A stretch of 53,342 nucleotides of DNA, the filler included, from Basidiobolus ranarum (taxonomy: Eukaryota): the NCBI GenBank assembly GCA_040143965.1. It is 2 parts of 2 records of this genome, joined end to end, with 100 filler letters (N's around TTAATTAATTAA, not from the genome) between each part and the next. Parts side by side here need not be neighbours in the genome. Positions count along the whole stretch, not along the records: positions 26,882 to 53,342 come from JASJQH010007006.1; 1 more part is not named here. The stretch is one strand, 5' to 3'. Each line of letters begins with the position of its first letter. Position 1 is the stretch's first letter. The notes beneath the pieces were generated by a model. That model saw only the letters and a program-made list of their open reading frames with translations. It searched no databases and was not told the DNA's origin. A program made the position numbers and the translations under genes. Below are positions 4,910 to 53,144 of the stretch, in pieces.

Positions 4910-5230
4910 TGTTCAAGAGAAAGAGTAAGCAAACGTGAGGAAAAAGGATATGTTAATGATCAACATTAGTACCACTTTTTCTAAACTCTACCAGATGCAA
5001 ACCCGATTCATATGTAACTGATAAACTAATCAGGAAATTGAATAAAGGCACGAATATTGTTTAAATCACTTAATTAAATGTTCATGACTTTGCTCTAATC
5101 AACAAATATTGGACTGTATATTTATATATTATCAAAGAACTAATCGAACAAGAAAGCCCTTGTTAGTGTATTATTAAAGCACATACGTATCCATGATAAA
5201 ACGGAATGAGAGTTAGTCTTGGGACTTAAT

Positions 5231-9005: not shown

Positions 9006-9424
9006 GATTGCTTTCCTTATTTAAACGAAGTTAGTTCTCAAGAGTTTAAAATCACCATCACTGTTGCTACAATAAGGCCCTTCTTGACAATCTGAAGCAG
9101 AATCGTTTGTCAGGCAAAATACCAAAGGCATAACGAGTCGGAATCAAGAAGGAAAAGAACTACGAGTTGGATGGATTGTATCCTTTCAGTAAAGATAATG
9201 CGATAACATACCGTGGCCAACAAAAGTAGAAATTGAAGGAGAAGGAATTTCAATCGAAGTCGAAATCATCTCAATACACTTTCCACATCCGAACATTTCG
9301 GCTGAATCCAAAATTTTCTTATCGGAGTCCCCCTGAAATATCATGATTTCAGCAATCCAAGAATCCCATGGTATTTCTATGCAACTCTCGTCATCCTAGA
9401 GAGCCACCCCACTAATTGGTGTCG

Positions 9425-26881: not shown

Positions 26882-26883
26882 CA

Positions 26884-33272: not shown

Positions 33273-34294
33273 ATGGACCAAGACCAAAGAGAAGTCGCTA
33301 AACTATGGAGGGTTTACAGAACCATTCACCAATTGGCTCATGATAGAGTAAATATATTGACTTTTCAACGAATTCTTACTTGTTCAAGTGGCTGACTTGT
33401 ATGTATGGTACGTAGGGATATTTGGTGAGTCAGGCCGAGTTAGACATGGATCTGGAACAGTTCAAAAACATGTACGCTAGAGCTGGTATGGTAGAGTGAG
33501 TAGTGAAAATAATTTTCAAACCAACTGGGAAACCCTTCTTTCATAGAATCTCATCTTATTTAACCTCCTAGTCGAAATTCTCTTACTTTCTTGGTTCAAA
33601 AGAAAGACGATCCTTCCGACCAATTACTCGTGTTTTTCCCAGAAGAGAAATCAGTGGGTGTGAAACCTATCAGAAAGTACGTCAAGTGAAGCTTTATCTC
33701 TTTTTTATCTGATCTTTTACTTATCTTGTTTTGATAGATACTGTGAAAGAATGGTCACTCAGGGTATTCCTAAAGGTGTCATTGTTTACCAAGGTACCAT
33801 GACTTCTTCAGCCAACAAGGTAGCCATCATAACTTAGCCATACTGTTTGTGGGAAATGTTGACTAAAACTCCTACTTTAGGTCATCGATCAAATGTCAGC
33901 CAAATATAACTTGGAATCTTTCCATGAGAGTGAGTTGTTGGTGAATATCACTGAACATCAGCTCGTTCCTATCCACGTCGTCTTGGCACCTGAAGAAAAA
34001 CGTACATTGTTACAAAGATAGTATCCTTTTTGAAGTTGAATGCATGATATTCTCACCCGTATTTCACGCGTGTATCCTTAACTAAGAACTAGTCGTTTAA
34101 AGGAAACTCAGCTCCCACGTATTCAGCCATCAGACCCTGTTGCCAGATACTATGGCCTTAAGAGAGGACAGGTGGGTGTTTAGTTTGTCTTATCAGTGGT
34201 ATCCCATATCACTAACATCTCTTTATAGGTGGTGAAAATCATTCGTCCTAGTGAAACTGCTGGAAGATATCTGACTTATAGACTTTGCTTGTAG
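33273..34294 (+). CDS. RPB5: RNA polymerases I/II/III shared subunit RPB5, 7 exons; not in ORF track
   Basis: [29 protein letters not shown]...[77 protein letters not shown]. Confidence 0.96.
34021..34092 (+). other. U12-type (minor) GT-AG intron in RPB5
   Basis: Donor GTATCCTTTT; branch TCCTTAAC at 34075-34082, 10 nt before the AG; no polypyrimidine tract; removal restores [16 protein letters not shown]. Confidence 0.93.
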
Positions 34295-47046: not shown

Positions 47047-48637
47047 ATGTCCTCCTCCCCCGCCACAACAAATGGTAAGAGTCTATCATCAATTCACAGC
47101 AAGAACCGATCGCTGAAATTTTATGTTAATTACAGATGAGAGCGCCTCAGATTGCACTCTTCCTTCGATCCATCAGCTTAATCCAGAAGTTAGTATCCCT
47201 TTCCAATCCAGGGAAGCCTCTCAAAAAGATGTAGATAAATCCATATCCTCGCCACCTATCCTATTTCCACCACCAACTTTAATGTCACAAACATCTACTG
47301 AGAATCTGAGCGAAAGAATGAGCATACGATGTGAATATTCGCGCAGTCCTTCACGCAGTGAATACGGTCAATCCTCAAAGGCCAGTAGTGATTCGGAAGA
47401 GGAACGGGCTCTTAAGACACCAGCGAATGATATGGCAGCTTTGGAGTCAGATTCACAGCCGAAAGATGAGGGCAGTCATATGAAGCATGCTTATGTTTGC
47501 CCTTATACGGGATGTGGTTGGAGCTTTAAGAGATATGAACATCTAAAAAGGCACCAGCTAGTTCATACAAAAGAGCGTCCATACGTGTGTGAGTATCCCA
47601 GCTGTGGAAAAAGCTTTAGTAGAAGTGATAACTACTCTGCTCATTATCGCACGCACCAACGGCGCAAGAGTTTGATAGAAACCAACCCTTTCTCTTCGAT
47701 TGAAGGAAAAGATGTAAATCTTCAGAGTTCGAGACTCGTTCACCGAAGATGTAGCCTAGCAATAGGCGACGAAACTCGAGCTACAAGATTCAAGCTCGAA
47801 AGCTTGGATGTACCCACAATAAGGGACGTGGAAGAACCGCTTCCATCCCCTTCCAAAACTAGCAACATTCATCAATTGTTAAATGGATCTGAACCACATC
47901 CAACAGGTCTCTATCCCCGTAAACGTCGATATTCGGAACATACCCTTGCTACTTCTCAAGATCCCGACCAAGAGAAACCTACGAAAATCTCTAACTGGGG
48001 TCGAGCAGAAAGGAGGCATAGCATTGCAATCATGACCTCTATGCCTACTAATTTTGGGGCTTCTCATTCCCCTTCAGGTCATCAAAGCTCACATACTCTT
48101 CCACCAAATGTTATACATCACCTCTATCCACATCCAAATATCCGCTTATTATCACATTCCCAATCATTGACCAACCTTCCCCGCCATTCGTACTCACATC
48201 CTCACTCTCAAGGACAACCGCTAGCGTTCCTAACCAATCACTTCACCCATATCCACTCTATAGTTGGTATGCCACTGGCTACAATTGCTGAATCGCCATC
48301 ACATCATATCCCTACTACCACAACAGCTCCAAGGACCTCTGGCACCAAAAATCATGTGTGTACAGTTGCCGGGTGCAACATGCGCTTCAAACGCTTGGAA
48401 CATTTGAAACGTCATATGAGAGTTCATACCCTTGAGAGACCGTTTGCCTGTACTTTTATCGGATGCCGCAAGACATTCTCGCGACGAGATAACCTTGGAC
48501 AACATATGCGTACTCATGAGCGTCAAGCTTTAAAGCAAGTCCAAAATACTTCAGTAATTGCACCATCTACAACCCATTCTACATCCGTTGGATTAGGAAT
48601 TGGTCATGCTGGACATGTAAGACAGAGGTCTATGTGA
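47047..48637 (+). CDS. C2H2 zinc-finger transcription factor with two separated finger pairs (Msn2/Seb1-like fingers), 2 exons
   Basis: [15 protein letters not shown]...; [40 protein letters not shown] and [40 protein letters not shown]. Confidence 0.9.
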
Positions 48638-49559: not shown

Positions 49560-52091
49560 ATGTCCCAACCAACGAGGCTACCCTCGGACAATCCGAAAAA
49601 GGAACCAAGATCTTTAACCTCAGATGTGTGGAGACCTTTAAGCGCTTTAGCTAATACTGCATCTTTAGTCATGTCACCTTTAACCAACTCCATTCTGTCT
49701 TCAACCTTGGTTACTTCTTCTGGTTGGTCCAATAAATCCGATACACACCACCAAACTCTACGCTTCTTGATGACTAAAAACCCAACAAGAAAACTAGATT
49801 CCAAATTTGAATTAGGAAAAACTACCGATAATTTGTTACTAGGAGGATTGTCAAATAACGATACGGAAACCGGTGGAATGTCTCTATTTGAAGGATTTCA
49901 AGCTGGTTTAAGTGAAAATTTGAAAGAAACTGCAGAAACCCCCTTAACAACACCTAAAAAACATCGTCGTCGTGGTAAAAAAACGGTGGAGGATAGCGGT
50001 GAATCGTCTGGTCAACCCAAAGCGAAAGGTTAGATAACACCTACCTAATTAGTAATTCTTGGAATTTGTTAATGATCTTGTTAAACTAGCAGGTAACACC
50101 TCTCTTATCTGTAACGATCTTGAGTATGAACTAGACCAGACTGTATCCGAAATCGAGAGCACTAAAGATAAAAAGGTATATATGTGACTTCTCTCACTGG
50201 AGACCATATTTTCTTTAACTTTATGTTCCTTTGATAATACAGAAACGTATACGCGAAGAGATTGAAAAGATCGACAATTTGATAGATGAATTGACGTCAA
50301 AAAAAGAAAACTTTCTTCTTCAGTTAGTGAAAGTTGAAAAGCAGGAAAAGAAGGCCGAAGGGTTATGTAATATTTCATTCATCTAATGATTACGCATCTT
50401 TTCTCAGCACTTACATTTTGCTACAAAGTAACGGACCTTCAAGATAAAATCGCACTTTTTGCTGACGAAGAATTGGAGACTGAGATTCCTACTCCCGAAG
50501 CTGATGGTAGCTTAACTACTCTTCATTTACAAACAAACTTGATATTGAACAAAAGTCTACTTAGATTCTTCAGAATCCGTCAATGATGCCAAGCAAATTA
50601 CTTATGGAACTGTTAAAAAGGTGAGTTTCCAAAACCAATATTTAGTAGCTGCATTCTTACCAACTCCTTGTAGTCATTATATGGCCACGACAATACCGTT
50701 ACCTGCATAGATTTTGACCTAACCAGTGGATTATTAGTCTCGGGATCTACTGATACCACAGTTAAAGTCTGGGACTTGAATAATTATGAGTGCATTAGAA
50801 CGATTCAAGGCCATAATGGTAATCTCATAGATGTATTGTTCTTGGAACTATTTATTAATTATCTTTGCAGACATCATTCGATGTGTACAGGTTCAAGATC
50901 ACATCTTAGCCACCGGCTCCAACGATGGAACCGTATGTATCTGGAACCTTTCCATTTCTCCTGTGGTCTCCAATGACCAACCTCCTTCGGAGAATACCGA
51001 GGAGAATGTATCGACTTCTGGCAATGCTTCTGACCCAGAGATCAACAACTCAGAGCTTGCCGCTGCCCCCCAAGCTCCAGTTCAGGAATACTTCCATGGA
51101 GACCCTTCCTGCATGAATGTTATTGCAGGCCATAACGACGCAATTTGTTGTCTACAGTTTGGAAATAACACATTGGTATGTTCACATTCAACATCAGATA
51201 GAAAGAAGAGAAAACTAAACAAACAATCGGGCATTCTTCCTCCATTAACCGCATAGGTCACTGGTTCTGCAGATAAAACCATGAAGCAATGGGACATGGA
51301 AACCGGGCAATGCATCATGGACATGGATATTTTATGGAACATGAAGGGAAGCAACTATAGCATGTGGAGTAGCGTCGGTGATGAATATGGAGTTGGTGGG
51401 TTTGTCGGGGCACTGAAATTCTGGAAGTATGCTCTAATAAGTGGCACTGCTGATGGCGCCCTTCGCATGTGGGACTGTATCCTTTTATGAACAACTATCT
51501 AGTTCTCTCTAACAAATAAGTTTCATGAAGCCTTGACTAATTTCTAGTACGTACCGGCCAAACACATCGCACACTATCTGGTCATTCTGGTAAGCTAATC
51601 ACCTCACACATAACCTATCCACCGATACTGAGCGTGAAACACTTGATTTAGCACCCATCACCACCCTGGAATTTGATAGCAACTACATTTTTAGTGGATC
51701 CCTAGACAAAACAATCAGAGTAAGCCAGATATACATCATACCCCTATCCGCGGTCGACATTAACTCGTTGCTTCCTTAAGATCTGGGATATTCGTGCGGG
51801 TAAAACATTCGAAACACTCCACTACGACAACAGCGTAACAAGTCTGCAATATGACAAAGAAAAGATCGTATCCACTGCTGGACAGAATCAAATCCAGGTT
51901 TTTGCACTTTACTCTGCTCTGTCAATTCTTTCTAGTTTCTAAATCAAGCTATCTCTCAGGTATATGATCGGATCACCTTCCAACATTCCACTTTCCTGGG
52001 CCATAATCAACCAGCACGTACGGTTCGGATGAAGGAAGATGTGCTAATAAGTGGTGGCAGAGACAATATAGTCAACATCTGGAATCTATAA
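49560..52091 (+). CDS. Mdv1/Caf4-like mitochondrial fission adaptor (N-terminal extension, coiled coil, WD40 repeats), ~11 exons
   Basis: SLFEGFQA motif; coiled coil; WD repeats including VTGSADKTMKQWDMETGQC, GGFVGALKFWKYALISGTADGALRMWD|LRTGQTHRTLSGH; TAA at 52089-52091. Confidence 0.85.
51477..51547 (+). other. U12-type (minor) GT-AG intron in the Mdv1/Caf4-like gene
   Basis: Donor GTATCCTTTT; branch CCTTGAC at 51531-51537, 10 nt before the AG; removal gives RMWD-L-RTGQTHRTL. Confidence 0.88.
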
Positions 52092-52389
52092 GATCCTTTA
52101 CTTCTCATTTCACACCATTACAATCATTCTTGATGTTTCCTCTTTCTTGCGCTACCATAACCCTCTTTCTTGCGCTGTCATAACCCTCTTTACTCATCCT
52201 TAACAATATCTCTTTCATTCAATCAATATATAATGTTCACTTTCATTCATGCCCTTCTATATCTCATACAGACCACTGACAAAGCTCTTATTTATCAAGC
52301 TTATCAACTGTTCCTTTTTTGGGATATTCTTAAAGTAAACTTAGTCACGTGCATTCTGATGACAAAAACAAGCCACCCTAAGACGCCTT

Positions 52390-52906
52390 GGATTGTAAGA
52401 AATTCGCATGGTGAGATATGCAAAGAAATGGCCTTCCCGTAGTTAAGTAACTCGGACATGACCAAATCAGTGGCAGGTGCATTAAGGATACCCCAACAAC
52501 TATGCCCAGTTGCGATATACAAATTCCGGAGAGCACTCCAATAATAGGAGAATGATACTGGAGTTGAGGAAGGTAGCGTGCTTGTTGCCTCATCTAATAC
52601 AGTAGAGAGTGAACCAGCACGCTTTTTCAGTCGTAAGCAAGCCTCATGGTCTGGTAGGATATCGGCCATATTTTCTGGCAGTGGAACTTGATTACTTTCA
52701 CCACACATAAACTATCTCATCAACACCCGGGTAAATTTTCGGGTCTGTACCATCGGATAAATCCAAGAATAAAGCATGTCCAGAGGCTTGGTTGGTGTCA
52801 TTACAATACTGTGCTCGCTCACCATCAATGGGAACATCAAAAATAATCCATCTAGAGTAGTTTTGGTCCAAAGACCCATAACCAATGACAATATATGCAT
52901 CCACAT
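52390..52906 (-). pseudogene. FAD-dependent oxidoreductase (DAO family, TDA3-like) pseudogene, C-terminal half
   Basis: Motifs split over frames: LVMGLWTK / VPIDGERA / HSIVMTPT / GHALF..DPKIYP..IVYV / CGES / QARYLP...PIIG / NLYIATGHSCWGILNAPATDLVMSELL. Confidence 0.8.
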
Positions 52907-53144
52907 AAAAAGGTGTCCATTATGACCAAAATTAGCCTTGATTCTGTTGAAATTAGCATAGCCTAAACACCTATATAGTCATATATAGCTTAGTATTTAG
53001 TTATTCCATATTGAACTAAGATATCACCTCAAGGGGAATTTACTTAGAAGTTATCAGATATACATTTTGATAACTTGTCCTAGAGGCCCCAAACTTTGTA
53101 CACTTGTTCCTGGGACCTTCTTTAACATATTCTACCCGTTTGTT

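Follow-up and report, generated by a model that had tools for sequence, protein, structure and literature searches.

Introduction

Discussions of minor (U12-type) introns usually treat them as relics in genes that are ancient and pan-eukaryotic. The fungus Basidiobolus ranarum raises the question of how such an intron comes to stand in the gene of the mitochondrial fission adaptor Mdv1, a protein not found in mammals (PMC7432047): was it newly inserted, was it converted from a major (U2-type) intron, or was it kept from an older fungal gene? The sequence considered, called the window below, is the whole analysed stretch of 53,342 nucleotides (nt) from assembly GCA_040143965.1, made of parts of two records joined by filler, of which positions 26,882 to 53,342 come from JASJQH010007006.1. 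In this window, the Mdv1-ortholog gene occupies 49560..52091 on the plus strand, and the intron in question, the eighth of eleven, occupies 51477..51547. It is very probably a U12-type intron at an ancient position. The fuller account, in which an ancestral minor intron persisted in Basidiobolus while other lineages converted or deleted it, includes a direction of change and is favoured with moderate confidence.

The intron and its class

Donors of minor introns follow the consensus [G/A]TATCCTT at positions +1 to +8, their branch sites follow TCCTTRAY, some 10-15 nt ahead of the 3' splice site, and a pyrimidine tract is lacking. The intron at 51477..51547 is 71 nt long and lies on the plus strand in phase 1. 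Its 5' splice site, GTATCCTTTT (51477..51486), matches the minor donor consensus and, past the initial GTA, departs from the major consensus at +4 to +6. The branch motif CCTTGAC occupies 51531..51537; its A at 51536, the presumed branch point, is 11 nt from the 3' end of the intron. After this motif the intron runs to its end as TAATTTCTAG, in which no pyrimidine tract occurs, and TAATTTCT stands immediately before the terminal AG (51546..51547).

The boundaries are set by the reading frame and by the protein. Exon 8 (51257..51476) ends cgc atg tgg gac t, that is, ...GALRMWD and the first base (T) of a leucine codon, while exon 9 (51548..51589) starts ta cgt acc ggc, where TA completes the leucine and RTGQTHRTLSGHS follows. 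The leucine codon is split T/TA in this way, and excision gives ...RMWD-L-RTGQ...; retention leads to a stop after four codons (open reading frame, ORF, 51257..51490). The database protein of this gene, here P0001, is 100% identical to the exon 8 product, and its RMWDLRTG spans the junction. The Basidiobolus meristosporus ortholog, P0002, reads RMWDLRTGQ over the same junction, and this motif is retained in the fungal orthologs inspected. In a 21-sequence alignment (A1), residues R490, W492, D493, L494 and R495 are invariant.

Chance expectation was estimated with the composite pattern TATCCTT-N35-65-CCTTRAY-N5-15-AG, counted in the whole window and in 100 shuffles of it. The pattern occurs twice against 0.02 expected, and none of the 100 shuffles reaches two. 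Both occurrences are protein-defined exon junctions, namely the Mdv1 intron and an intron at 34021-34092 in the RPB5 gene. Taken by itself, the donor 8-mer RTATCCTT shows no enrichment (8 in the window where 5.27 are expected, a count that 16 of 100 shuffles attain). Within the Mdv1 gene, the other 10 introns all lack ATCC at +3 to +6.

By the usual sequence criteria, the element at 51477-51547 is a U12-type intron of the GT-AG subtype. A preliminary description of this DNA had proposed exactly such an intron in an Mdv1 gene, with boundaries set by RMWD-L-RTG and a CCTTGAC branch 10 nt before the AG. The donor, the branch motif, the restored frame and the composite pattern bear out the class, and P0001, P0002 and the fungal orthologs bear out the boundaries. 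CCTTGAC is likewise present, and only the spacing needs correction, being 11 nt when counted from the branch A.

Identity of the gene

The relatives of the gene were sought with the C-terminal 343 residues of P0001 (E<=1e-30), and the best 120 of 964 proteins were considered. After two Basidiobolus proteins, these comprise proteins of Mucoromycota, Glomeromycota, Mortierella, Zoopagomycota, a chytrid, Basidiomycota and Ascomycota. Relatives named Mdv1p, mitochondrial division protein 1 or mitochondrial fission protein are fungal, with about 30-53% identity in the best local alignment, and the first non-fungal family in this set is animal FBXW7 at 26-29%. WD40 matches from Pfam fall on exons 6, 7, 8 and 12, and the last 14 residues of exon 8 correspond to positions 26-39 of the 39 in the profile. 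Moreover, the profile of alignment A1 matches WD40 structures, including FBXW7 and Cdc4.

An AlphaFold model built from alignment A1 (mean predicted local distance difference test score, pLDDT, 65.8; predicted template modelling score 0.51) shows three parts. Residues 1-152 are of low confidence, with short helices at 31-37 and 109-120; a single long helix covers 160-237 (pLDDT 79-89); and a WD40 propeller, with beta strands over 268-610, follows (pLDDT mostly 80-94). In its predicted form, the Basidiobolus protein shows the same tripartite layout of N-terminus, helix and propeller as is described in outline for yeast Mdv1. The N-terminal 270 residues match no Pfam family in exon-wise searches and give no usable match in the ESM Atlas, and against the PDB at E<=10 they find one unrelated chain only (E 2.8). 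The PDB sequence search and the A1 profile search gave no match to the solved Mdv1 coiled coil.

Judged by best-hit orthology together with this predicted architecture, the gene at 49560..52091 is an Mdv1 ortholog, for which Fis1 binding by the N-terminal extension, coiled-coil dimerisation and a part in bringing Dnm1 to Fis1 for mitochondrial fission are only putative. The named Mdv1 relatives ranking ahead of FBXW7 and the WD40 propeller agree with its earlier designation as an ortholog of the fungal fission adaptors Mdv1/Caf4.

The same position in other fungi

The history of the intron depends on whether other fungi interrupt the same codon. Metagenome contigs were scanned with alignment A1, and 80 loci were kept. 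Labelled by the best summed tblastn score against only 54 named reference proteins, 71 of them are Mdv1-like: 47 are nearest to Ascomycota, 21 to Basidiomycota, and one each to Mortierella (L053), a chytrid (L056) and a yeast-like sequence (L051). The remaining 9 of the 80 are WD40 genes of other kinds. An intron interrupts the codon after WD in 16 of the 71 Mdv1-like loci and is absent there from 53 (16 of 69 with a reading); in the other two, L057 stops at the codon and L073 is not resolvable.

The introns at this site occur in five Ascomycota-like loci (L010, L042, L049, L052 and L054), in ten Basidiomycota-like loci (L050, L055, L058, L059, L060, L066, L067, L068, L070 and L071) and in the Mortierella-like L053. 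All 16 are in phase 1, in the same Leu/Met codon, and measure 36-94 nt. In other words, the Dikarya-like and Mortierella-like introns share gene family, codon and phase with the Basidiobolus intron and differ from it in the donor, which is GTAAGT, GTGAGT or, in L049, GTACCT in the former and GTATCC in the latter. A correctly spaced minor branch motif is found in none of the 16; judged by these motifs, the introns are U2-type and must be spliced by the major spliceosome.

One of them deserves closer description. The U2-type intron of L053 (1517-1610, 94 nt, donor GTAAGT) holds a perfect TCCTTAAC, 29 nt from its 3' end. This is the sole such motif among the 16 introns (921 nt in total), and the observation was made post hoc. 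The motif may date from a time when the intron was minor, or may match by chance, and it is treated as a hint only. Separately, the 36-nt site intron of the divergent Ascomycota-like L049 begins GTACCTTGAC, with CCTTGAC oddly placed inside the donor.

Other introns of the gene may also be old. A map of breaks between high-scoring segment pairs (HSPs) from tblastn, approximate in that it recovers 10 of the 16 introns known at the site, shows clusters at P0001 residues 318-323 (1 break), 420-425 (6), 492-497 (10), 522-533 (29) and 564-575 (7). These clusters fall near Basidiobolus introns 6, 7, 8, 10 and 11. Most simply read, Basidiobolus has retained several ancestral fungal introns in its Mdv1 gene, intron 8 included. 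A scan of prokaryote genome contigs for contaminating fungal contigs gave only bacterial WD40 genes (80 of 80 loci, at 22-29% identity).

Glomeromycota gene models

Twelve Mdv1 gene models from Glomeromycota were compared at the level of proteins only. Eight of them read normally through the site, and the remaining four are disturbed at or near it. In Dentiscutata erythropus (P0007), the model reads ...GTED-V-RTGQ where the sister species has ...GTEDGVIRMWDLRTGQ, so that GVIRMWDL is replaced by V. The Paraglomus occultum model (P0077) reads ...GAI-L-RTGQ, without RMWD. That of Acaulospora colombiana (P0005) is truncated two residues past RMWD, and a partial A. morrowiae model (P0006) ends four residues short of the site. 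It may be added that P0077 also retains the next intron in frame.

Since an "intron" of 24 nt or 12 nt is not predictable alone, an upstream phase-1 GT appears to have been joined to the true acceptor before TA. Joins to this acceptor from G/GTGTT... in P0007 and from C/GTATGT... in P0077 give the observed V and L. This implies that a phase-1 intron exists at the site in both genes, as read back from their proteins. It further suggests that the true donor was scored below GTGTTA or GTATGT, which fits a donor of the GTATCC type and is no proof of it. The faults of P0007, P0077 and P0005 at RMWD/LRTG probably arose in annotation, at a donor of atypical sequence. Among the 123 retrieved proteins, in which six contexts were examined, none continues into the intron (RMWD followed by C/R/Y/H-I-L).

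Published background

Basidiobolus is the most minor-intron-rich fungus known (PMC10639083, PMC11347168). For B. meristosporus, minor introns have been put at 0.554% (n=249; Larue & Roy 2023, PMC10639083) and at 237 (Olthof et al. 2024, PMC11347168), and this species has U11, U12 and U6atac together with a putative divergent U4atac (PMC11347168). The predicted minor introns of B. meristosporus and Rhizophagus irregularis share with the present intron the donor and branch motifs and a phase bias away from 0 (PMC10639083, PMC11347168), and the passages that deal with them name no Mdv1 gene. The Dikarya are described as being without minor small nuclear RNAs (snRNAs; PMC11347168).

The earlier suggestion that two U12-type introns among about 24 genes point to a high minor-intron density in this genome is right, and it is not new, being published for the sister species B. 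meristosporus. Two such introns in the 53-kb window fit the published density and add nothing to it. In the library searched, nothing joins Mdv1 with a minor intron, and of the papers that combine Mdv1 with U12, none among those listed (8 of 12) is on splicing by its title. The Mdv1 intron is thus individually undescribed in the literature searched, as a member of a class already known, and its B. meristosporus counterpart may already stand in per-intron catalogues.

History of the intron

Because the same codon and phase recur in 16 loci and are implied in two Glomeromycota models, the position, by this comparison, predates the split of Basidiobolus and Dikarya, and the intron was not inserted recently. 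An origin within stem fungi, later than that of Mdv1, would still agree with this. The preliminary description had proposed that a minor intron was gained in the fungal lineage, a claim that is not supported in that form, given that the position is not new and that 16 of 69 loci and Glomeromycota carry an intron there. The mapping of the site in Mdv1 orthologs, which it had proposed, gives a divided result: the position is shared, and all 16 readable introns are U2-type.

Within this frame, an ancestral minor intron explains the pattern best, because conversion is held to be nearly one-way and parallel gain negligible, and because the Glomeromycota give a hint in its favour. Conversion is assumed in the literature to run almost only from minor to major, minor motifs carrying more information, and parallel intron gain is likewise considered negligible (PMC10639083). 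On this account, the common ancestor of these fungi would already have held the site intron as a minor intron. Basidiobolus, with a presumably working minor spliceosome and many minor introns, would have retained it, and lineages losing minor splicing would have converted it to the major type or deleted it.

Several observations weigh against this account. The first concerns direction: the 16 readable orthologous introns are all U2-type, a U12-type intron was directly seen in no further lineage, and what the Glomeromycota show is indirect. The chytrid-like L056 has no intron at the site. The reconstructed minor-intron density of the ancestral Zoopagomycota is low despite the high value in Basidiobolus (PMC10639083), a contrast that would accommodate a derived minor state. 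The second concerns the sample, in which the loci are not independent (L023/L024/L025, L034/L035 and L052/L054 share hit statistics and site sequence) and the lineage labels carry the limits of their small reference set. The third concerns the intron itself. The base before CCTTGAC is G where the consensus has T; an ACTAAT overlapping this motif also fits the loose major-type branch consensus; and other donors of the gene are degenerate (GTTAGA, GTAGCT, GTTTTT). Additionally, the annotation behind P0001 may be ab initio, and the support for the junction is protein, not RNA.

The strongest alternative turns the direction around. It supposes that the ancestral site intron was U2-type and that point mutations in donor and branch switched it to the minor class in Basidiobolus, within the general minor-intron enrichment of this lineage. 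The uniform U2 state of the 16 orthologous introns, with the Mortierella-like L053 among them, speaks for such a switch, as does the record density of B. meristosporus against a low reconstructed ancestor (PMC10639083), and the degenerate major donors of the gene might lower the barrier between the classes. If true, it would be an event that the field assumes essentially never happens, and it would offer a mechanism for the minor-intron excess of Basidiobolus over the reconstructed Zoopagomycota ancestor. The switch is nevertheless considered unlikely. Besides contradicting the nearly one-way course of conversion, it draws on a U2 state that in Dikarya is uninformative about direction, since a lineage without minor snRNAs cannot show the minor state. 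The two Glomeromycota models that bypassed the true donor for GTGTTA or GTATGT suggest an atypical donor outside Basidiobolus, and the perfect TCCTTAAC inside the U2-type intron of L053 could be a relic of the minor state.

A second alternative leaves the position as it is and questions the class. According to it, the major spliceosome removes the intron, and the U12-like motifs are a chance resemblance or mark a hybrid or minor-like intron, classes that have been described (Olthof et al. 2024, PMC11347168). The GT-AG ends and the ACTAAT over the branch motif are compatible with this, and the weak conservation of major donors in the gene would allow U2-type or dual recognition, a further point to be set against the minor class. 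The coincidence required is large, however: a 10-nt perfect minor donor with a correctly spaced CCTTRAY is expected 0.02 times per window, the donor is off the major consensus at +4 to +6, and a pyrimidine tract is lacking. Since B. meristosporus shows that minor snRNAs are present in the lineage, as are minor introns predicted in the hundreds (PMC10639083, PMC11347168), removal by the major spliceosome appears highly improbable.

A true Basidiobolus-specific insertion of a minor intron, falling by coincidence into the codon and phase of independently gained introns, is hardly credible: the absence of Mdv1 from mammals (PMC7432047) sets this intron apart from classic pan-eukaryotic minor introns, and there is one documented case of massive minor-intron gain, that of Physarum (mentioned in PMC10639083), but 16 loci from at least three other fungal groups have an intron at exactly this position and in this phase, as is implied for Glomeromycota, several other Basidiobolus Mdv1 introns roughly match Dikarya positions as retained ancestral introns would, the two U12-type introns of the window share no body and show no sign of a mobile-element origin, and parallel gain is regarded as negligible (PMC10639083). 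Physarum polycephalum resembles Basidiobolus in having unusually many minor introns, which raises the question of gain; its introns are new insertions (PMC10639083), whereas the Basidiobolus Mdv1 site is common to other fungi and no common intron body is seen.

Proposed splicing and significance

If the intron is minor, as favoured here, the way it would be removed can be outlined from its motifs and from what is established about minor splicing. U11 snRNA would pair with ATCCTT of the donor, and U12 snRNA would pair with CCTTGAC, bulging A51536 as the branch point. U4atac/U6atac-U5 would finish the removal, joining GAC T to TA CGT and thereby encoding RMWD-L-RTG in a WD40 blade. With the intron kept in, the stop after four codons would cost the protein the last 118 propeller residues. 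Retention would truncate the propeller in this way, and it is proposed that minor splicing is therefore required for full-length Mdv1 to be produced.

The existence of the intron is unsurprising in itself, Basidiobolus being the published record-holder among fungi. Its interest lies in the setting, a minor intron in a gene family absent from mammals. Because the site is an ordinary intron in Ascomycota-like and Basidiomycota-like loci, whose lineages are without minor snRNAs, it offers a clean natural test of what becomes of a minor intron after loss of its spliceosome, with deletion in 53 loci and a major-type intron in 16. It likewise puts to the test whether Basidiobolus inherited its exceptional load of minor introns or acquired it. 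As major-type introns across Dikarya occupy the position too, the direction of the type change is directly testable.

The Mdv1 gene model

The gene consists of 12 exons and 11 introns on the plus strand, a model supported by its open spliced frame and its identity to P0001. Apart from exons 8 and 9, the exons lie at 49560-50028, 50090-50175, 50243-50366 and 50429-50506 (exons 1-4), at 50565-50620, 50674-50818 and 50871-51175 (exons 5-7), and at 51652-51719, 51781-51897 and 51960-52091 (exons 10-12). The spliced model measures 1842 nt and encodes 613 amino acids. P0001, annotated as "Mitochondrial fission protein [Basidiobolus ranarum]", has 612 and equals the model minus one alanine. The donors of the other introns are loose and include GTAAGC, GTATGT, GTTAGA, GTAGCT and GTTTTT, among others.

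The extra alanine sits at the 3' end of intron 1, where positions 50087-50092 (plus strand) form a tandem acceptor, TAG/CAG. Use of the first AG gives 613 amino acids, and the database annotation takes the second, which gives 612. The site is a possible alternative acceptor of the NAGNAG kind.

The second U12-type intron and other donor-like sites

A second U12-type intron in the window had been indicated from the start, and it exists at 34021-34092 on the plus strand, in the RPB5 gene. It is 72 nt long, in phase 2, with the donor GTATCCTTTT; TCCTTAAC occupies 34075-34082 and places the branch A 11 nt from the AG. The flanking exons match positions 1-26 and 29-53 of the Pfam family RNA_pol_Rpb5_C. 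Because mouse Polr2e is among U12-intron genes (PMC7312986), this may be an ancient conserved intron.

The RPB5/POLR2E intron thus resembles the Mdv1 intron in its motifs, in the 11-nt spacing from branch to AG and nearly in length (72 against 71 nt). The two differ in their hosts, RPB5 being a pan-eukaryotic core gene, the usual home of a minor intron, and Mdv1 being a gene not conserved in mammals (PMC7432047). A common origin of the two introns was considered and rejected, as only the splice motifs are shared; 38 of 73 aligned columns are identical, and no common body is present. With no common body between them, nothing suggests a mobile-element origin. A scan of the whole window against Rfam gave 0 matches.

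The other RTATCCTT sites of the window are not supported as introns. The sites at 9178 and 43798 on the plus strand and at 4944, 17594 and 52484 on the minus strand are without a correctly spaced branch motif, and at 9178 and 43798 long ORFs run on the opposite strand. The copy at 34072 on the plus strand is the branch site of the RPB5 intron, so not a donor. At 52484-52491 (minus strand), GTATCCTT was rejected as a splice site; it lies inside a minus-strand ORF, where it reads G-I-L-N.

Neighbouring features

Downstream of the Mdv1 gene, coding-looking ORFs occupy 52304-52978 on the minus strand. Just upstream of it, an open frame of 506 amino acids on the plus strand (47117-48637) contains two pairs of C2H2 zinc-finger motifs, and its product is presumably a transcription factor.

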